Positions 592-60,603 are shown, numbered from the stretch's first letter. The stretch: 64,000 nucleotides of DNA from Bdellovibrionales bacterium (GCA_965262715.1 OZ253553.1:320001-384000), one strand, 5' to 3'. The notes: generated from the letters alone by a model not told the origin. Made by a program: numbers and translations.

Positions 592-1134
592 GGTTCATGA
601 CAACTTAAGCTGATTTTTATAGGGGTTAACTCATTGTTATAATTATGAAAGGCAGGTGTTTTGTCTGTTTCCAGTTTTCTTAAGGCGAGTTTTAGAGAAA
701 TTAAGGGTTTAAGTGTTCTGGCATAACTTATAAAGATAAGTACCTAGCTTATCAGTTTCTTTTATGAAGTTATGATGACCAATGATATCTAATATAGCCT
801 GAACTGGTTTCACTCAAGATGAATCTGCCTCTGGGAGTTTTTTGGCAATGACCCTGGCGGCTAATGCCCTCAGCAAATAGCTTATTGCCTAGAAAACATG
901 TTTATTTTGAGTAAATAGATACTCTTCGTTTTTTATACCATGTTAGGGAAATCGGCTAAACTTATTTAAGTCTCATTGCCTTGAGGCCAGACTCGTGAGA
1001 CGAGTCTCTTCCCATTCTTATCATCAGTTTTTATCACTACTTATCTCTTTTGAATCTATATATAATGCTTGCAAATTGAACTTGAATGGTCATGCCGAAT
1101 CCCAGAATAAAGAAGGTTTAAGTTGTCATGAACC
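592..1134. mobile_element. Non-autonomous MITE-like element (IS1/IS6-like GGT ends) containing an X module
   Basis: Perfect 17-bp terminal inverted repeats GGTTCATGACAACTTAA / TTAAGTTGTCATGAACC; 8-bp target duplication TTTAGTTT at 584-591 and 1135-1142; no transposase ORF. Confidence 0.85.
807..951 (-). repeat. Structured repeat module X
   Basis: Same architecture as the 17311 copies, reverse orientation: CCTCTGG, GGCA...TGCC stem, ATGTTAGGGAAA end. Confidence 0.8.
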
Positions 1135-9633: not shown

Positions 9634-11595
9634 CTATCTCTTTTGCTTTATGTTCTGTTTATTTGATGTTGTTGGTGAATCTTTTTTTTTTGATTTTTTT
9701 TCTGTGTGAACTGAATCCATAATTGGATCATCAGATGAAGGATTAGAGAGAGTAGGCTCCTTTTCCTTACTTGAATCTTCTATTATCTTACCTTCTGTGG
9801 CAACTTGTTTTATCTCTGAGATATCACCTGGAGCAGGCAGGTCTTTATTTGCGCTTTTAGTAGAGTCGCTGAGATTTTGAGATGACTTTGTTTGTGTATC
9901 TGTATTGATCTTAATATCTTCACTTGAATCTTCTATTATCTTACCTTCTGTGGCAACTTGTTTTATCTCTGAGATATCACCTGGAGCAGGCAGGTCTTTA
10001 TTTGCGCTTTTAGTAGAGTCGCTGAGATTTTGAGATGACTTTGTTTGTGTATCTGTATTGATCTTAATATCTTCACTTGAATCTTCTATTATTTTATCTT
10101 CTGTGGCAACTTGTTTTATCTCTGAGATACCTGGAGCAGGTAGGTTTTTATTTGCGCTTTTAGTAGAGTCGCTGGGATCTTGAGATGACTTTGTTTGTGT
10201 ATCTGTATTGATCTTAATATCTTCTTCTTTTTTCTCTTCTGTTTGTTGATCATTGACTTGCTTTTTAGTTTGTGATGTTGGAGCGGTACTTTCGCTTGCA
10301 TCTTGCGTTTTTGTAGCAAGTGATGGGATCTGCTTATCCTTATATTCTTCAATAAATGCCTTAGATTCACCAATGAGCTTGAGGGCTTTGTTTTTATCCT
10401 CATAACCAGGAATGGCCATAACTTCCTCTGCTGTGGCTTCTGCTAAGGATTTAATAGAGCTAAAATTGCTTTGATAAATATTTTGAGCCATTGTATCTGA
10501 GATATTTTCAAGGAGAGAAAGGTTGAAGATAGCCTCTGCTTGCCTTTTTGCGACATCAGATTCAGAAACAATTTTCATCTGCCATCCTGTGAGCTTTGTG
10601 GCTAAGCGAACATTTTGACCTTTTTTACCTATAGCTAAGCTAAGTTGTGCATCTGGTACGACAATCTCCATTTCTTTATTTTCTTCATTGATAAAAACTC
10701 TTGCCACTTCAGAAGGTTGAATGGCGTTGCAGACAAAGTTAATAATGTCCTCTTTGAAAGGAACAATGTCTATTTTTTCTCCTTGTAATTCCTGTACTAC
10801 GTTTTGTACACGACTTCCTTTCATGCCCACACAGGCACCTACAGGGTCAACAGCATTATCTTTAGAAACAACAGCTATTTTAGCGCGAGAACCTGGTTCT
10901 CTAGCTGCTGCCACAATCTTTACAATTCCATCATGAACTTCTGGAACTTCAATCTCAAACAGCTTGATCATATATTTCTCGTCTGTTCGTGACATAATGA
11001 TTTGTGGGCCTCTCCCTGTCTGCTTGACATCTAAAATATAACCTTGAACACGATCTCCAGGTTTATAGATTTCTCCAGGGATCTGCTCACTTTGAGGTAA
11101 ATAGGCTTCTGTTCGTCCTAGATCAACCACAATAGTTCTGTATTCCACTCTTCTTACAATCCCAGAAGCAATTTCTCCTCTTCGTTTTTCAAATTCTTGA
11201 AAGATGATTTCATGTTCTGCATCACGTACTTTTTGCATAATGATTTGCTTAGCTGTCTGAACAGCTACTCTTCCTAAATCTGATGAGTCCATTTTAATCC
11301 CAATATAGTCACCAATTTTGCATTCAGGGTCTAATTCTTTAGCTTCTGCAAGCTTGATTTCTACCTCTTCATCCACAAAGGTTTCGGGGTCTACGACTTC
11401 CTTGAATTGATGCAATTCAATTTCACTGGAATCTTCATTATAACTAGATTCAATCTCCTTATAAGTTCCATATTTTTTTCGAGCAGCCAGCAACATCCCT
11501 TGAACAATAGCATCAATAACAATTTGTTTTTGGATGCCTTTATCCCTTACTATGGTCTCAATCAATTTGTCTAAGCTAGAAAATTCGGCACCCAT
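9634..11595 (-). CDS. nusA: Transcription termination factor NusA with repetitive C-terminal extension
   Basis: AREPGSRAKIAV, GACVGMKGSRV, LSLAIGKKGQNVRLA. Confidence 0.98.
   Translation of the reverse strand: MGAEFSSLDKLIETIVRDKGIQKQIVIDAIVQGMLLAARKKYGTYKEIESSYNEDSSEIELHQFKEVVDPETFVDEEVEIKLAEAKELDPECKIGDYIGIKMDSSDLGRVAVQTAKQIIMQKVRDAEHEIIFQEFEKRRGEIASGIVRRVEYRTIVVDLGRTEAYLPQSEQIPGEIYKPGDRVQGYILDVKQTGRGPQIIMSRTDEKYMIKLFEIEVPEVHDGIVKIVAAAREPGSRAKIAVVSKDNAVDPVGACVGMKGSRVQNVVQELQGEKIDIVPFKEDIINFVCNAIQPSEVARVFINEENKEMEIVVPDAQLSLAIGKKGQNVRLATKLTGWQMKIVSESDVAKRQAEAIFNLSLLENISDTMAQNIYQSNFSSIKSLAEATAEEVMAIPGYEDKNKALKLIGESKAFIEEYKDKQIPSLATKTQDASESTAPTSQTKKQVNDQQTEEKKEEDIKINTDTQTKSSQDPSDSTKSANKNLPAPGISEIKQVATEDKIIEDSSEDIKINTDTQTKSSQNLSDSTKSANKDLPAPGDISEIKQVATEGKIIEDSSEDIKINTDTQTKSSQNLSDSTKSANKDLPAPGDISEIKQVATEGKIIEDSSKEKEPTLSNPSSDDPIMDSVHTEKKSKKKDSPTTSNKQNIKQKR
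9768..10224 (-). repeat. Three near-identical in-frame tandem repeats (150-153 bp) within nusA
   Basis: TGTATTGATCTTAATATC recurs at 9901, 10054 and 10204; unit EDIKINTDTQTKSSQ...KIIEDSS. Confidence 0.95.
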
Positions 11596-17206: not shown

Positions 17207-17282
17207 TCAGAGATAGCTCAGTTGGTAGAGCAGTTGACTGTTAATCAATTGGTCGGGGGTTCGAGTCCCTCTCTCTGAGCCA
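17207..17282 (+). tRNA. tRNA-Asn (GTT)
   Basis: 76-nt cloverleaf; acceptor TCAGAGA/TCTCTGA, anticodon arm GTTGA-CTGTTAA-TCAAT, GGTTCGA, encoded CCA. Confidence 0.97.
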
Positions 17283-17310
17283 TATCATCATTATACTTTA
17301 TTAAAATACG

Positions 17311-18128
17311 TTTTCCTTAACATTGTGTTAAAGAATGAGGGTAGTCTCCTCCTAAAAATAGACAGATTTTTTAGGCAATGATCATTTTACGAGGACGTTA
17401 GTCGTCGTGATCATTGCCAAAAAACAGCCAGAGGTGTGGAAGTATATTGTTTTTTAGAAAAACAAGGAAAAATCTTGAAGGAGCTGAAAATTGATATTTT
17501 AAGCTAAGTCTCGAAGTCCTCGATGAGATCGCCAAAAAGCGATCTCATCTGCGGAAGATCTCGTCTTTAGCTTAAAACATCAAATCTTAATTCCTATGAT
17601 AAAGATTATAGGTGATTTGTAAGGAGAAGAGACGGTAAGAGGAAGTTTTCCTTAACATTGTGTTAAAGAATGAGGGTAGTCTCCTTACTAAAAATAGACA
17701 GATTTTTTAGGCAATGATCATTTTACGAGGACGTTAGTCGTCGTGATCATTGCCAAAAAGCAGCCAGAGGTGTGGAAGTATATTGTTTTTTAGAAAAACA
17801 AGGAAAAATCTTGAAGGAGCTGAAAATTGATATTTTAAGCTAAGTCTCGAAGTCCTCGATGAGATCGCCAAAAAGCGATCTCATCTGCGGAAGATCTCGT
17901 CTTTAGCTTAAAACATCAAATCTTAATTCCTATGATAAAGATTATAGGTGATTTGTAAGGAGAAGAGACGGTAAGAGGAAGTTTTCCTTAACATTGTGTT
18001 AAAGAATGAGGGTAGTCTCCTTACTAAAAATGAACAGGTTTTTGAGGCAGTTAGCATTTTCTTGAAGGCGTGAGCCTTCAGGCTAACTGCCCAAAAGTGG
18101 CCAGAGGCCAGTTCATTTTTAGGGAAAC
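17311..18128 (+). repeat. Head-to-tail array X-Y-X-Y-X of structured non-coding modules
   Basis: Unit starts TTTTCCTTAACATTGTGTTAAAGAA at 17311, 17646 and 17982 (period 335/336 bp); the first two units are almost identical, the third X has a different but compensated hairpin. Confidence 0.95.
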
Positions 18129-18204
18129 AGCATTTGACAAATTTATAAAGCTATCGTGAAATAAATATATAAATATATAAATATATAAATATAGGGGGAA
18201 ATAA

Positions 18205-25142: not shown

Positions 25143-25797
25143 GAACCGGTCTCAAAAATAAAAATTTAATAAACATTTCCAGTGATTCATAACTTTATCT
25201 AACTATAATGTATATCAGTGTTCACCTTCGTCTATAAACGTTTGTACCTATTACCTCTAATTTCTTGTATAAAAGGGTTATCTTCCTCAAAATGAATCAG
25301 CTTTTTTTTCACTAAAATGCATCTGACCTCTCGAGGCGAGCCTCTGGTCACTTTCTGGCAGTAAGCCCGACGGCTCTTATGGCCGTCGGCAAATAGCTTA
25401 CTGCCTGGAAAGGCTAATGCATTTTAGTAGGGAGGATCTTCTTGTTTCTTAGCACAATGTTAGGGAAATTTTATTCTTGCCATCGGATCAGTACCTAGAT
25501 TTATTTCATGGACAATCCTCAAAAAGGCTAGCCTCGAGAGGCTTGTCTTCTATTCATTTTGAGTAAAAGCAGGATGAAGGAAGTTTTCCTTAACATGATG
25601 TAAAAGAACGAAGAGATCCTCTCTACTCAAAATAAACGGATTTTTAAGGCAATCAGCATTTTGTTGACGGTGTTAACCGTCACGCTGATTGCCCAAAAAC
25701 AACCAGAGGTTGGTTTATTTTGAGTGAGTTTGTATAATGCAAAACTGGTATTTTTTTCTAAAATTGTTATCTCTAATAGCATTTTTGAGATGGCTTC
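25143..25797. mobile_element. Composite MITE with family-W ends enclosing an inverted pair of X modules
   Basis: TA|GAACCGGTCTCAAAAATA ... ATTTTTGAGATGGCTTC|TA; X reversed at 25307-25468 and X forward at 25584-25729. Confidence 0.6.
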
Positions 25798-27940: not shown

Positions 27941-28276
27941 TGTTTTTTTAGAAAAAACAAGGAAAAAATCTTTAGAAGCTTTGGTTTGATGCATAAGTTA
28001 AGTCCTCGAGCTATCGCTTGGATAGCGATAGCTCTGCGGAAGACCTCGTCCTTTAACTTATACATCAAACTTTATTTGCCATGAAAAGATTTAGTGTGAT
28101 TTGTAAGAAGAAGAGATAGTAGTAGGAGGATTTCCTTAACATCATGTTAAAAACCGAAGAGAGTCTCCCTACTAAAATGCCTCCTACTTTCTAGGCAGTT
28201 AGCTACCTGCTGAAGGCGTGAGCCTTCAGGCTAACTGCCAGAAAGTCGCCAGAGGCGAGAGGCATTTTAGTGAAAC
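27941..28276 (+). repeat. Structured repeat modules Y-X
   Basis: TTTTAGAAAAAACAAGGAAAAAATCTT...AGTCCTCGA...TCTGCGGAAGA...GTGATTTGTAAGAAGAAGAGA, then TTCCTTAACATCATGTTAA...CCAGAGG...TTTTAGTGAAAC. Confidence 0.9.
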
Positions 28277-40181: not shown

Positions 40182-41508
40182 GGTGGATTCAAGTCGTAAG
40201 TGCAACACTCCTTGCCTAGTTGTTTAAAGGTGGTTAGAGGAATACTCTAATCAATACCTTTACATAACGAGAGGAGTATTCCATGAGTAAATACACTCAT
40301 CTAACCCAAAGTGACAGATACCAGATTTTAGCACTTTTGCAAAGTGGAAAATCAATAAGTTCAATTGCTACGCAGCTAGGTCGAGATAAAAGCACGATAT
40401 ATAGGGAGCTGAGTCGTAACAAAGGTTTGCGAGGTTATCGTGCTCAACAAGCCCATGAAAAAGCAGTCGATCGTCTTCAAGACTCTCATAGACATATAAA
40501 GATAACACAAAAAGTCATTAATAAGCTTGAGAGGTTTCTTTGTGAACGTTGGAGTCCGGAACAAATATCCGGTTTTCTTAAAACAAAAGGTTTTTCTATA
40601 AGTCATGAGAGTATTTATCAACATATTCTGCGAGATAAGAAATCAGGAGGTGATCTCTACAAATTTTTAAGATGTCAGAAGAAACGCAAGAAGCGATATG
40701 GTACAAGTAGGTTTGATAAAAGGGGTCAGATACAGAATAGAGTGAGTATTGATAAAAGACCTAAGATAGTAGATAAGAGGATTCGCATAGGAGACTGGGA
40801 AGGTGATTTAATGATAGGTAGACATCATAAAGGAGCTTTAGTCACACTGGTAGATAGATGTTCTAAGAAGACGAGGATTGTCAAAATAGAATCTAAGAGT
40901 TCTGAGGCAGTATTTCATGCTATTTCTAAAACTCTTAAAAGAGAGGTTGTTCATACAATGACTTTGGATAATGGTAAAGAGTTTTCGTGTCATGAGAAGA
41001 TCAGTGAATATACCGGATGTAAAGTTTATTTTGCACATCCTTACAGTTCATATCAGAGGGGTTTAAATGAGAACACGAATGGTTTAATCCGTCAGTATTT
41101 TCCAAAGAAGACAGACTTTAGAGAAATCACCTCTAAGGATGTAAAAAAGGTTGAGTTTCTTTTAAATCACCGCCCTCGAAAGAGTTTAGGTTTTCTAACT
41201 CCCAATGAGTTTCATAGACAGAAGATGATTTGTTGAAATCATTATCAATTCAAAATTACTTATCCTATATAACAGCTTTTTGTAAGTAAAAATTGATGTT
41301 TATAGTAAAGGCAAGTTTTTCCGCAGAGCTTTAGCTCGAGGACTACTTGCCTTTACTATAAACATCAAAGTATATCTCTTCAAATAAAATAATTTACTGT
41401 AATCTTTCACTATAATTAAAACTTTGTTGGAATATTAATCTTAAAATGATATAACTTTTAAAAATATCTATAACCGCAAAAGTGTTGCACTTGCGATTTG
41501 AAGTTACA
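40182..41508 (+). mobile_element. IS30-family insertion sequence, 1327 bp
   Basis: Imperfect 27-bp TIR (GGTGGATTCAAGTCGTAAGTGCAACAC / GTGTTGCACTTGCGATTTGAAGTTACA); 3-bp TSD AAA. Confidence 0.95.
40283..41236 (+). CDS. IS30-family transposase
   Basis: HTH RDKSTIYREL, WSPEQI, GDWEGD, DNGKEF, RGLNENTNGLIRQYFPK. Confidence 0.98.
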   Translation: MSKYTHLTQSDRYQILALLQSGKSISSIATQLGRDKSTIYRELSRNKGLRGYRAQQAHEKAVDRLQDSHRHIKITQKVINKLERFLCERWSPEQISGFLKTKGFSISHESIYQHILRDKKSGGDLYKFLRCQKKRKKRYGTSRFDKRGQIQNRVSIDKRPKIVDKRIRIGDWEGDLMIGRHHKGALVTLVDRCSKKTRIVKIESKSSEAVFHAISKTLKREVVHTMTLDNGKEFSCHEKISEYTGCKVYFAHPYSSYQRGLNENTNGLIRQYFPKKTDFREITSKDVKKVEFLLNHRPRKSLGFLTPNEFHRQKMIC

Positions 41509-42011
41509 AAATCTAAAACGAATAGATTTGAATTTCTCACAATTTCATCTAACGAACTTGAAGAGTTTTTAGATAAGCTTAGAGTTGAAGATAATACTCG
41601 AATTTATATGAGAATGATCGTAGAGAAAACCAATGAGGCAACAAATATATCTCGAGAGCGAGATCAAAATGTTGTTGCATCTATTCTAAATCAACATGGA
41701 AATGGCTTAGTGCTCTTTGGAGCAGCTCATGGACCAGGTATTAAGCAAGGCTTAACAGCAGCTTGTCAGAATAATTTATGAAAAGTTAAGAGTTCATGCT
41801 GTCAAATTTTTAGACGGTTAATTGTCAACTTTATAACCATTATCTTTTTTAAAGGACCTTTAAACTGTTTATCTTTAAGAGCTACTGTCATAATTTGAGG
41901 TGTTTTTTTAATTTATTTGTATAAGTATGAGCCATTTACAACTCTTTTTTTGATAAAATGTTTTAGTTCTAGGCAAACTCTACCGAAGTTTTATAAGGGA
42001 GAGGCGTCTAT

Positions 42012-48379: not shown

Positions 48380-48456
48380 TGGTGACCATGGCAGGATTTG
48401 AACCTACGACACCAAGTTTAGGAAACTTGTGCTCTATCCAACTGAGCTACATGGCC
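48380..48456 (-). tRNA. tRNA-Arg (CCT)
   Basis: 77-nt cloverleaf; GGCCATG/CATGGTC acceptor, anticodon arm CAAGT-TTCCTAA-ACTTG, GGTTCAA, encoded CCA. Confidence 0.96.
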
Positions 48457-48506: not shown

Positions 48507-49400
48507 TTTCACTAAAGAGGCTTCTGTTTCCCTAAAAATAGACCTGCCTCTGGCAGTTTTTGGGCAGTCAGCCTGAAGACTTACGTCTTCAAGAAAATGC
48601 TAACTGCCTCAAAAATTTGTCTATTTTTAGGAGGGAGACTACCCTCGTTCTTTAACACGATGTTAAGGAAAACTTTTTATTCACTAAAAATAAACCAGCG
48701 TCTGTTTCACTAAAAATGAACCAGCCTCTCGAGGCGAGCCTCTGGCAGTTTTTGGGCAGTTAGCCTGAAGACTTACGTCTTCAAGAAAATGCTAACTGCC
48801 TCAAAAATTTGTCTATTTTTAGGAGGGAGACTACCCTCGTTCTTTAACACGATGTTAAGGAAATCGCTGACTACTTTATCCCTAGTTCCTCTTACTATCT
48901 CTTCCTCTCCTTACAAATCACACCAAATCTTTAGCAAGATAAGAGTGGATATTTATGGCAAAAAGACAAGTTCTTCCGCAGATGGGATCGCTAAAAAGAG
49001 ATCCCATCGAGGACTACTTGGCTTTGCCATAAATATCCAGTCATTGCCCCAAAGATTTTTTCCTTGTTTTTCTAAAAAACAATCCATCTCCTAACTCTGG
49101 CGACTTTCTGGCATTGCCCTCAAACTGGCTCACGCCGTTTGGCAAATAGGGCAATGCCTAGAAAGCATGAGGCATTGTAGTAAACCAGATATCTCTCGTT
49201 ATTTAACATAATGTTAAGGAAATCATTCTCTTGCTATCTTCTCTTCTTACAAAGCCTAGAGAGGATAATACATTTTAGTAGGGAGATACTTTTTATCTAT
49301 TAACATAATGTTAAGGAAACTGTCTTACTTACTTCTTTCATTAAAATGCATCTGACCTCTAGAGGCTCGCCTCGAGAGGCTAGTTTATTTTTAAGAGAGA
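48507..49400 (-). repeat. Cluster of structured modules (read on minus strand: partial X, X, Y, X, X)
   Basis: X at 48526-48672 and 48704-48863 (near-identical), Y at about 48870-49085, X at 49094-49222, fragments to 49400. Confidence 0.92.
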
Positions 49401-58599: not shown

Positions 58600-58913
58600 G
58601 GTGGATTCAAGTTGCAAGTGCAACTCCTTGCATAGTTATTTAAAGCGGGTTAGAGGAATACTCTAATCAATCTCTTTAAATAATGAAAGGAGTATTCCAT
58701 GAGCAATTACACTCATCTAACCCAACATGAGAGATACCAGATTTTAGCTTTTTTGCAAAGTGGAAAATCAATAAGTTCAATTGCTACTCAGGTAGGTCGA
58801 GATAAAAGCACCATATATAGGGAATTGAATCGTAACAAAGGCTTGCGAGGTTATCGTCCTCAACAAGCCCATGAAAAAGCGGTTTATCGTCTTCAAAACT
58901 CTCATAGACATAT
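58600..58913 (+). mobile_element. IS30 5' fragment (left end plus truncated transposase)
   Basis: Left TIR at 58600; ORF from 58699 matches the transposase until cut at 58913 by a second IS30. Confidence 0.92.
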
Positions 58914-60248
58914 GGTGGATTCAAGTCGTAAGTGCAACTCCTTGCATAGTTGTTTAAAGCGGGTTAGAGGAATACTCTAGTCCATACGCTTTAAACACAG
59001 AAAGGAGTATTCCATGAGCTACACTCATCTAACCCAACATGAGAGATACCAGATTTTAGCTTTTTGCAAAGTGGAAAATCAATAAGTTCAATTGCTACTC
59101 AGGTAGGTCGAGATAAAAGCACCATATATAGGGAATTGAATCGCAACAAAGGTTTGCGAGGTTATCGTCCTCAACAAGCCCATGAAAAAGCAGTCGATCG
59201 TCTTCAAAACTCTCATAGACATATAAAGATAACACAAAAAGTCATTAATAAGCTTGAGAGGTTTCTTCGTGATCGTTTGAGTCCGGAACAGATATCCGGT
59301 TTTCTTAAACGAAAAGGTTTGTCTATAAGTCATGAGAGTATTTATCAGCATATTCTTGGAGATAAGCAATCAGGAGGAGATCTCTACAAATTTTTAAGAT
59401 GTCAGAGGCAACGGAAGAAGCGATATGGTACAAGTAGATTTGATAAAAGGGGTCAGATAAAGAATAGAGTGAGCATTGATAAAAGGCCTAAGATAGTAGA
59501 TAAGAAGAGTCGGATAGGAGACTGGGAAGGTGATCTAATGATAGGTAGACATCATAAAGGAGCTTTAGTCACGCTGGTAGATAGATGTTCTAAGAAGACG
59601 AGGATTGTCAAAATAGAATCTAAGAGATATGAGGCAGTTTTTCATGCTATTTCTAAAGCTCTTAAAGGAGAGGTTGTTCATACAATGACTTTGGATAATG
59701 GTAAAGAGTTTTCGTGTCATGAGAAGATCAGTGAATATACTGGATGTAAAGTTTATTTTGCACATCCTTACAGTTCATATCAGAGAGGTTTAAATGAGAA
59801 CACGAATGGTTTAATCCGTCAGTATTTTCCAAAGAAGACAGATTTTAGAGAAATCGCCTCTAAGGATGTAAAAAAGGTTGAGTTTTTTTTAAACCATCGC
59901 CCTCGAAAGAGTTTAGGTTTTCTAACTCCTAATGAGTTTCATAGACAAAAGATGGTTTGCTGAAGTTATTCATAGTTTATCCATTTAATTTTACTTATAT
60001 ATAATAACTTCTGAAAATGCTTATTTGACAGCTTGATGTTTATGGCAAAGGATCGTTCTTCCGCAGAGCTTTAGCTCGAAGACTACGAGACTTTGCCATA
60101 AACATCAAAATACATTCATTCAAATTAAATAATTTACAATAATCTTTCATGATAATTAAAACTTTGTTGAAATATTAATCTTAAAATGATACAACTTTTA
60201 AAAATATCTATAAACATAAAAGAGTTGCACTTGTGATTTGAAGTTACG
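58914..60248 (+). mobile_element. IS30 full-length copy with frameshifted transposase
   Basis: Both TIRs present; ATG at 59014 runs out of frame at a T5 run (T6 in the 58699 copy); main frame 59064-59963. Confidence 0.92.
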
Positions 60249-60348
60249 AAATAATAAATAGAAGTTATCTCAAAAATAAGTTTTGTATTTTGCTTTTGCG
60301 AGTTAAAATAGTGATCTGGAAATCCGGCAAGTAAGTTGTCATGAACCA

Positions 60349-60593
60349 TCCTATATAACAGTTTTTAGTAAGTAAATCTTGATACTTATGGCAAAGGATC
60401 GTTCTTCCGCAGAGCTTTAGCTCGAGGACTACGAGACTTTGCCATAAATATCAAAATACACCATTCAAATAAAATAATTTACAATAATCTTTCATGATAA
60501 TTAAAACTTTGTTGGAATATTAATTCTAAAATGATACAACTTGTAAAAATATCTATAAACACAAAAGTGTTGCACTTGCGATTTGAAGTTACG
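60349..60593 (+). mobile_element. IS30 right-end fragment
   Basis: Matches 41262-41508 including the Y hairpin and right TIR; preceded by a W-MITE end (60260) and TAAGTTGTCATGAACC, the end of the 592-1134 MITE family. Confidence 0.88.
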
Positions 60594-60603
60594 CAATAAT
60601 AGT

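Follow-up and report, generated by a model that had tools for sequence, protein, structure and literature searches.

A dispersed non-coding module with a covarying three-way-junction fold in a Bdellovibrio-like genome

What kind of element is repeated by the hundred through a bacterial genome, encodes no protein, and keeps its fold while its sequence changes? The question is raised by positions 17,311 to 18,128 of a 64,000-nt stretch of DNA (the window) from an uncultured, Bdellovibrio-like Bdellovibrionales bacterium (GCA_965262715.1 OZ253553.1:320001-384000), where three copies of a 147-nt non-coding unit, here called module X, stand in an array. The window is G000:C1:320001-384000, G000 being the genome studied, a single contig of 2.94 Mb with 33.6% G+C. 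For comparison we used G001, a sister species of the same genus (one contig, 90% complete, with hundreds of X copies), and G004, a reference genome of a different genus. The analysis revealed a three-way junction that is preserved by compensatory changes and spread over the whole of G000, and the explanation we favour, at roughly even odds, is a selfish element that depends on an enzyme supplied in trans.

To describe the fold we built a covariance model, R1, from 43 copies taken from the window, G001 and G004 contigs; their MAFFT alignment was not fitted to any structure, and the anatomical counts come from the 249 distinct full-length copies of G000 together with the three-genome alignment. 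X consists of a 44-nt 5' part followed by a three-way junction made of an outer stem, P2 (11-14 pairs), an arm, P3-P4, and a hairpin, P5. A first reading of the window, made from the sequence alone (the sequence-only reading), had described the outer stem, an unpaired A, a one-sided bulge of 5-6 nt and inner loops of GTGA, GTAA or GTTA, and all of these are seen on the 249 copies. The bulged A of the P3-P4 arm is found in 247/249; the bulge lies on the 5' side only and reads TATTTG (77), ATTTT- (37), ATTTTC (35) or ATTTTA (27); and the P4 loop is GTGA in 66 copies, GTAA in 45, GTTA in 29 and ATTA in 15. The CCAGAGG motif, by contrast, had been taken for unpaired and is not: it forms the tip of a third helix, P5, present on the 3' side only, with an invariant AGA loop; both partners change in 4 of its 5 pairs, and pairing survives in the variants TCAGAGA (18) and CTAGAAG (11). 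The first 12-14 letters of X (TTTCCTTAACAT), which we call the head, are at least 90% conserved and make up the left half of an imperfect palindrome. The palindrome of about 23 bp and the small hairpin noticed in the first reading are present, but they are conserved as sequence and not as pairs, opposed positions being mostly C-A or A-A with little covariation.

In the junction itself, structure is kept over sequence. Standard pairs occupy 97.1% of 1,797 cells of the 43-sequence alignment, against 82.0% after shuffling (0/500 shuffles reach the observed value), and pairing drops to 33-47% when the partners are slid by 1-3 columns. Changes on both sides are found in 30 of the 42 pairs (307 cells), and the 10-bp stem, already suspected of changing its sequence while it stays paired, shows all four Watson-Crick types at some positions (one pair is CG 94, GC 72, AT 42 and TA 16 times). 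A second comparison set each distinct copy against the closest relative lying more than 5 kb from it (123 pairs, 88% to <100% identical). Here 77 compensated double changes are still paired and 17 both-side changes are not of this kind; among the single changes, 116 are still paired via G-T and 166 are broken in one copy. By our own estimate, roughly a dozen double changes would be expected by chance (0.05 per site over about 4,700 pair positions), so the excess of compensated doubles is large. Substitutions in these close pairs amount to 0.051 per site in stems and 0.0975 in unpaired columns. In the four helices G-T oppositions number 307 and A-C oppositions 186, a mild hint that it is the forward strand which folds. 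The one-strand preference proposed from the window is real but modest, and fold energies separate neither strands nor chemistries, z-scores ranging from -5.8 to -9.0 whichever strand is folded and whether as RNA or as DNA (the copy at 17981..18127 scores -8.7 as DNA and -6.6 as RNA).

Within the window, R1 gives 14 matches at E<=1, which comprise ten full copies and one fragment together with three weak matches (E 0.03-0.22, opposite-strand or overlapping); the full copies and the fragment lie where the sequence-only reading had placed at least ten copies. The 23-bp palindrome pattern has 16 matches over both strands, at 9 places, against 0.01 expected. The array that raised the question (17310-18060) is a tandem repeat with a period of 336 bp, 2.2 units and 97% matching, and X opens each unit. 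The features, in window coordinates, are as follows.

808..953, minus strand: X copy, R1 112.3 bits.
17207..17279, plus strand: tRNA gene, Asn according to aragorn, lying 28 nt upstream of the array's first X.
17310..17462, plus strand: X copy 1 of the 336-bp array, R1 103.6 bits; head, P1-P4 and CCAGAGG intact, 3' part deviant from the family.
17463..17644 and again 17799-17980, plus strand: stretch of the 336-bp unit outside X, which holds another long imperfect hairpin module and a purine-rich tail.
17645..17798, plus strand: X copy 2 of the array, R1 107.1 bits; near-identical to copy 1 (100% over 300 nt).
17981..18127, plus strand: X copy 3 of the array, R1 159.9 bits; complete and canonical, with a different P3/P4 stem sequence.
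25307..25470, minus strand: X copy, R1 127.2 bits; P5-like insert of 14-16 nt after CCAGAGG.
25583..25729, plus strand: X copy, R1 156.9 bits; head-to-head with 25307-25470.
28129..28275, plus strand: X copy, R1 151.4 bits.
48527..48673, minus strand: X copy, R1 158.7 bits; downstream of the tRNA gene at 48383-48456 (minus strand).
48705..48865, minus strand: X copy, R1 134.5 bits; carries a P5-like insert, head-to-tail with 48527-48673.
49067..49224, minus strand: degenerate X copy, R1 75.8 bits.
49245..49321, minus strand: 5' fragment, from the head of X to about position 68, R1 34.7 bits.

The second module of the 336-bp unit runs from a long imperfect hairpin (about 17497-17577) into a purine-rich stretch (GTGATTTGTAAGGAGAAGAGA...) and recurs at window positions 28033-28087; the same purine-rich stretch precedes many X copies genome-wide. 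This module is a separate repeat family that forms a mosaic with X.

Across G000, a profile search with nhmmer returned 444 X matches (236 on the plus and 208 on the minus strand), of which 304 are full length; the total adds up to 59,376 bases, 2.02% of the genome. On crude calls of open reading frames (ORFs), 25 of the 304 full copies lie in ORFs, 84 in convergent and 53 in divergent gaps, while co-directional gaps hold 83 copies in the same sense and 59 in antisense; the gaps of G000 as a whole are 17% convergent, 65% co-directional and 17% divergent. Outside G000 the family is narrowly distributed, with X in 3/41 relatives by BLAST and in 3/151 genomes of the order by covariance model. All matches in G004 (loci L166-L172) fall on contigs C1 (12,026 bp), C4 (15,070 bp) and C11 (52,545 bp), which are syntenic with G000 and 82-95% identical to it over kilobases (e.g., 8,388 nt at 90.5%), whereas the remaining G004 contigs show only 66-71% identity to the window genes. 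Judged by this identity, the X-bearing contigs probably stem from a close relative of G000, in a mixed bin, or from a recent transfer, in which case the X family would be known from one genus only, as far as searched. X breaks short-read assemblies, and in this case it exposes what is probably a chimeric bin among the reference genomes. Between G000 and G001 the consensus sequences of X differ at 27/147 positions, mostly, on an uncounted reading of the printed consensus lines, at paired stem positions with the pairing kept. Identity between the two species is up to 85% for individual copies, 82% for the consensuses and, at the DNA level, 70-76% for the window coding genes; X is either held more tightly than the genes or has moved between the species.

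The copies of X are strongly clustered and co-oriented. They form 221 clusters in G000, of which 126 are single copies and the largest has 16 hits. Neighbouring full copies stand head-to-tail in 104 cases, head-to-head in 11 and tail-to-tail in none, and the bias persists among neighbours less than 90% identical, which excludes recent tandem duplicates (42 head-to-tail vs 11 head-to-head, p 2e-5). Recent tandem amplification is evident from arrays in which identical units repeat every 230-431 bp. Parts of X are multiplied as well: a 26-nt unit of the 3' end and a 14-nt P5-like unit are repeated inside some copies, and the former is duplicated between the window copies at 48527-48673 and 48705-48865 (period 26 at 48680-48729). 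The 14-nt unit (CTCGCCTCGAGAGG and variants) forms long tandem runs behind CCAGAGG, as seen from G000:C1:2566563 onward and at 934497, 2464609 and 603246. In about 30 compound forms a whole X sits between P3 and P5 of a host X; the linker is conserved, so that these forms are probably one subfamily and not independent insertions, and we did not use them to define insertion boundaries. X also lies close to the 3' ends of tRNA genes, with a boundary <=10 nt away in 5/38 genes; 2000 simulation runs gave 0.24 such genes on average and never more than 3. Finally, the forward strand of X is on the locally G-rich strand in 106/181 clusters (odds ratio 2.0, p 0.025, with 10-kb half-windows).

How X is joined to its surroundings was read from its ends and from sites with and without a copy. 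The termini are complementary at 9/11 positions (5' TTTCCYTAACA against 3' TNTTAGKGAAA) with ragged boundaries, and at head-to-tail junctions the abutted ends make a palindrome. The 3' end stops variously at GTGA, GTGGAA or GTGAAAC, while the left flank is A-rich, with one conserved A (83%) four letters before TTTCC. Because genes of G000 and G001 are only 70-76% identical and their synteny is broken, orthologous empty sites against G001 were not feasible, and the usable empty sites, about ten, lie within G000 and the contigs of its close relative. At the clearest of them X is inserted in a member of another repeat family that has nine uninterrupted copies, and the join adds 0-1 bp (at most one A). 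At sites A and B, X is found in ~90%-identical G004 contigs with none at the G000 counterpart; one of these sites holds a single X beside another small element and the other holds two X copies. At site C both G000 and the close relative carry X, the relative's copy being internally replaced. The usable empty sites show irregular joins and no regular target duplication, although ragged ends without duplication are not firmly established as a property of X. Contigs from the sequencing runs X1, X5, X6 and X7 yielded only repeat-induced joints with short sides (20-63 letters), which were not taken as signs of excision.

We then searched for a known family or an enzyme to which X could be assigned. 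No Rfam family matches X at its gathering threshold, which the window reaches only for two tRNAs, and at E<=10 the region 17280-18160 yields 10-18 bits against thresholds of 33-85; this agrees with the first reading, which recognised no described family. Among the hits listed by general literature searches none links Bdellovibrio with such repeats, although a publication may exist in print. Repeated genes of G000 were typed in the 20 largest multi-copy ORF families, which include insertion sequences (IS) of the IS30 (27 copies), IS4-like (23, 11 and 4), IS5 (15), IS256 (14) and IS3 (10) types as well as IS1595, PD-(D/E)XK/YhgA-like 'transposases' and the PF05635 family. In none of the IS30, IS4-like, IS5, IS256 and IS3 families do the ends resemble X. 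A single Y1_Tnp gene occurs in G000 (IS200-type, G000:C1:1839424-1839918) and none is matched in G001; the G000 gene has typical GC-rich end hairpins unrelated to X, with no full X closer than about 3.5 kb. About 0.6 kb downstream of it, on the other strand, lies a serine recombinase, resolvase-like by sequence (1840509-1841276). The reverse transcriptase domain RVT_1 is matched 3 times in G000 and never in G001, and the IS110 transposase (PF01548, DEDD) has 0 matches in both. IS91-type Y2 transposases gave 0 matches in a search whose control was also silent and which is therefore uninformative. The TnpB zinc-ribbon PF07282 matches within a 1343-aa ORF, and the Phage_integrase family has two matches per carrier genome, none linked to X. 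That G001, 90% complete, has no match to Y1, reverse transcriptase or IS110 and yet carries hundreds of X copies weighs against all three mechanisms. The HUH or RAYT partner encoded elsewhere that the sequence-only reading suggested is not supported by these counts, the G000 Y1 gene being an ordinary IS200-type unit.

REP, BIME, ERIC, BOX and bcr1 repeats have been known for decades, and for most of them the copying mechanism is unsolved. X is an unusually clean case of this problem, with hundreds of copies, a multi-helix covarying fold and invariant extrahelical bases in one genus as searched. In its behaviour X is REPIN-like and MITE-like (miniature inverted-repeat transposable element), and it is a member of neither family. 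BOX of Streptococcus pneumoniae is modular and carries differing numbers of an internal unit, much as X multiplies its 14-nt P5-like and 26-nt 3' units; sequence and fold are unrelated, and we know of no BOX module whose head is shared with gene cassettes. The attC sites of integrons and the attP hairpin of CTX phage are folded single-strand sites that, like X, keep structure over sequence, extrahelical bases and one-sided bulges and form head-to-tail arrays; they act at a single locus, served by a tyrosine recombinase that is either dedicated or Xer. X differs from them in being dispersed over 221 clusters, and its arrays consist of identical non-coding units, not of different cassettes. Correia/NEMIS and ERIC are examples of classical bacterial MITEs, which X resembles in size, copy number (about 2% of the genome), intergenic place, long stem-loop and short, partly complementary termini. 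It departs from them in lacking a regular target duplication and parental IS ends, in stems that vary but pair, and in co-oriented clusters. The first reading, too, had set X apart from a simple MITE, and this is supported: no target duplication is clear and none of the IS families compared has matching ends.

The definition of a classical bacterial MITE used here is the one given in PMC3184786. The same source describes bcr1 of the Bacillus cereus group as dispersed, about 155 bp long, variable in distribution among relatives and held in a stable fold by compensatory changes, all of which recall X; bcr1 differs in its 5-bp flanking direct repeats and is reported to be transcribed (PMC3184786), whereas duplications at readable X sites are 0-1 bp. 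REPINs, as portrayed by Bertels and Rainey (2011, PMC3116915), are likewise short, non-coding and extragenic, occur in hundreds of copies with hairpins predicted in single-stranded DNA or mRNA, form some tandem arrays of near-identical units including flanks, and are regarded as non-autonomous selfish DNA. They are, however, symmetric inverted doublets of REPs of about 20 bp that need the single-copy RAYT they flank (PMC3116915). X shares with them the extragenic position, the high repetition and the near-identical tandem units, and it has neither the symmetric doublet nor a cognate RAYT, being a 147-nt asymmetric three-way junction with a 44-nt 5' part, present by the hundred in a genome, G001, without a Y1 match. 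For the same lack of Y1 in G001, X does not correspond to the PATEs of IS200/IS605, and its flank is only A-rich, with no fixed target of 4-5 nt. A bridge RNA of the IS110 type would call for the DEDD transposase that neither G000 nor G001 matches, and an RNA borne by a retroelement (a retron, a diversity-generating retroelement (DGR) or a SINE-like element) for the RVT_1 that is missing among the matches in G001.

Taken together, these patterns led us to propose, with about as much confidence as doubt, that X is a non-autonomous selfish element copied via a folded single strand by a trans-acting enzyme. A protein acting in trans would recognise the head together with the folded forward strand, which would probably be a DNA single strand at the replication fork, DNA being somewhat likelier than RNA, and selection would favour forward strands whose fold is recognised. 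The conserved head (TTTCCTTAACAT) may serve as a protein-binding or joining site. New copies would land preferentially beside hairpins or existing copies and in the same orientation, the element would be copied or joined without a staggered cut, and only copies with an intact fold would act as sources, which would account for the covariation. With G001 free of every usual enzyme sought, the hunt for a new DNA-copying route, or for a hijacked host enzyme, is narrowed.

Several observations weigh against this proposal. Mobility is argued from distribution, the enzyme searches having yielded no partner; the usable empty sites number only about ten, several of them between diverged paralogues; the presence/absence sites may reflect gain or loss; and one copy, 818256-818402, is readable as flanked by a 7-8 bp duplication. 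The replication-strand bias is weak, with p rising to 0.05 and 0.10 in wider windows, and the copies are related rather than independent, so the shuffle and binomial figures overstate significance. Pairing still stands at 92.4% in the 72 copies whose nearest neighbour is 80-88% identical, and this pairing of old copies, together with the slower change of stems, fits a function at each locus as well as it fits selection on master copies.

The last point leads to the alternative that survives best, a structured RNA with a cellular role, for instance a terminator or insulator working in both directions, a 3' structure that stabilises transcripts, or a small RNA, with spread being secondary. We consider it unlikely, although a good deal of the evidence suits it. 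Old copies keep pairing, the rate of change in stems is half that in unpaired columns, 146/249 copies have a P4 loop of GNRA type, and G-T exceeds A-C by 307 to 186. P5, in which an A-run, a GC hairpin and a T-run follow one another, is flagged as terminator-like on both strands, as a consensus match only, for example in the window copy at 25583..25729. Convergent gaps hold 84 of the 279 between-ORF copies (30%) as against 17% of all gaps, X lies near tRNA 3' ends, and in G001 a same-orientation X follows 8/9 intact genes of an Avd-like family (PF05635). Yet X may face either way with respect to the upstream gene (83 sense, 59 antisense), divergent promoter gaps contain 53 copies, arrays reach 16 hits, 2% of the genome is occupied, and presence differs between relatives that are ~90% identical. 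Nor is there an Rfam match, X was not found in 148/151 genomes of the order, and a terminator scan of the region gave 9 sites against 5.7 expected, which carries little weight. A structured RNA family, which the sequence-only reading had offered as one of its two leading options, is for these reasons (both orientations, arrays and variable presence) unlikely as the principal explanation.

A different possibility concerns the head, which is found apart from the rest of X. At 77 places in G001 the first ~20 letters of X lead straight into an array whose 8-base unit is GGGATCYG, against 0 for a reversed control; in G000 the same junction has 2 matches and the control 1. Octamer arrays of this sequence also frame small genes of the PF05635 family, as in the cassette G000:C1:304034-304480. 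Pfam gives this family the name 23S rRNA intervening-sequence protein, and its product is said in PMC10053308 to resemble Avd, the DGR accessory protein. PF05635 has 19 matches in G000, 14 in G001 (loci L176-L189) and 19 in G004, and none in G002 and G003. X lies within 235 nt of all 14 matches in G001, and within 150 nt of 10/19 in G000 compared with 25.7% of random intergenic segments. Five truncated copies in G001 are cut by X after the same codons, and the same interruption is seen in G000. At site D a G000 cassette is joined to a bare motif made of the X 3' end plus the X head, with nothing in the close relative, and within its head X is joined to Avd-like cassettes and to one IS30 copy (inserted at G000:399667). 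In the window, the flank at the 3' end of the minus-strand copy 808-953 (770-807) resembles, by eye, the 3' part of a PF05635-type gene, with the same junction as in the interrupted copy G000:818337-818699.

These junctions raise the prospect, which we hold to be distinctly unlikely, that the 5' head is the joining site of an undescribed mobilisation system without DDE, HUH, IS110 or reverse transcriptase, one that would move interchangeable bodies (the X fold, octamer modules and Avd-like PF05635 cassettes) and for which the four-helix-bundle Avd-like protein could be a nucleic-acid-binding partner. Since the G001 copies of PF05635 are near-identical paralogues, not independent cases, and since PF05635 occurs without X elsewhere, we treat the family as a lead and not as the partner. 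Its phylogenetic profile, which among G000 to G004 seemed a perfect match, was set aside as evidence: the X contigs of G004 carry no PF05635, the genes being on other contigs, and other X-free genomes have many copies (18 in G021, 11 in G025). A likeness of the head palindrome to dif, the site of chromosome dimer resolution, was considered as well but not adopted. The modular head offers a concrete, testable handle.

Pairing could also be restored without any selection for the fold if the palindromes corrected themselves through intrastrand template switching or hairpin-templated repair. The 77 compensated doubles in 123 close pairs, where roughly a dozen coincident changes are estimated, and the equal folding of both strands would agree with this. 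Self-correction should, however, erase asymmetry, and the bulged A (247/249), the one-sided bulge and the one-sided P5 persist in both species; G-T outnumbers A-C on one strand, and 166 pair-breaking single changes stand uncorrected. We rate this process as highly unlikely to explain X.

A MITE of the ordinary kind, moved by the cut-and-paste action of a DDE transposase on short terminal inverted repeats, would be at home in a genome as rich in IS elements as G000, and the ends that complement each other at 9/11 positions and form palindromes where they abut at head-to-tail junctions would suit it. We nonetheless find it very improbable: none of the IS30, IS4-like, IS5, IS256 or IS3 families has ends like X, the usable empty sites show no regular target duplication, the clusters are strongly co-oriented, and free covariation in 30/42 pairs would be unexpected if the arms were double-stranded sites for one protein. 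Least probable of all is a REPIN- or PATE-type element moved by a Y1 HUH enzyme (RAYT or IS200/IS605 TnpA) on single-stranded hairpins, which would fit the extrahelical bases, the lack of target duplication, the weak lagging-template bias, the tandem clusters of identical units (a habit that REPINs share according to PMC3116915) and the one Y1_Tnp gene of G000, but which founders on a G001 with 0 Y1_Tnp, on the unrelated ends of the G000 gene about 3.5 kb from the nearest full X, and on the ragged ends and asymmetric three-way junction of X in place of an inverted REP doublet.

Other repeats were seen alongside X. In the window, a 153-bp tandem repeat (9769-10224; 3 units, 97% matching) lies within a long ORF on the minus strand (9634-11595) whose sequence looks like that of a repeat-containing protein. 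IS30-family copies occupy 40184-41512 and 58600-60597, the left end of the latter being tandemly duplicated (311 bp) at 58600-59224. On the scale of the genome, the cumulative GC skew of G000 is lowest near 2.60 Mb and highest near 1.01 Mb, and two blocks where the sign is opposite (1.6-1.8 and 2.2-2.4 Mb) suggest inversions, or else joins made at repeats during assembly.

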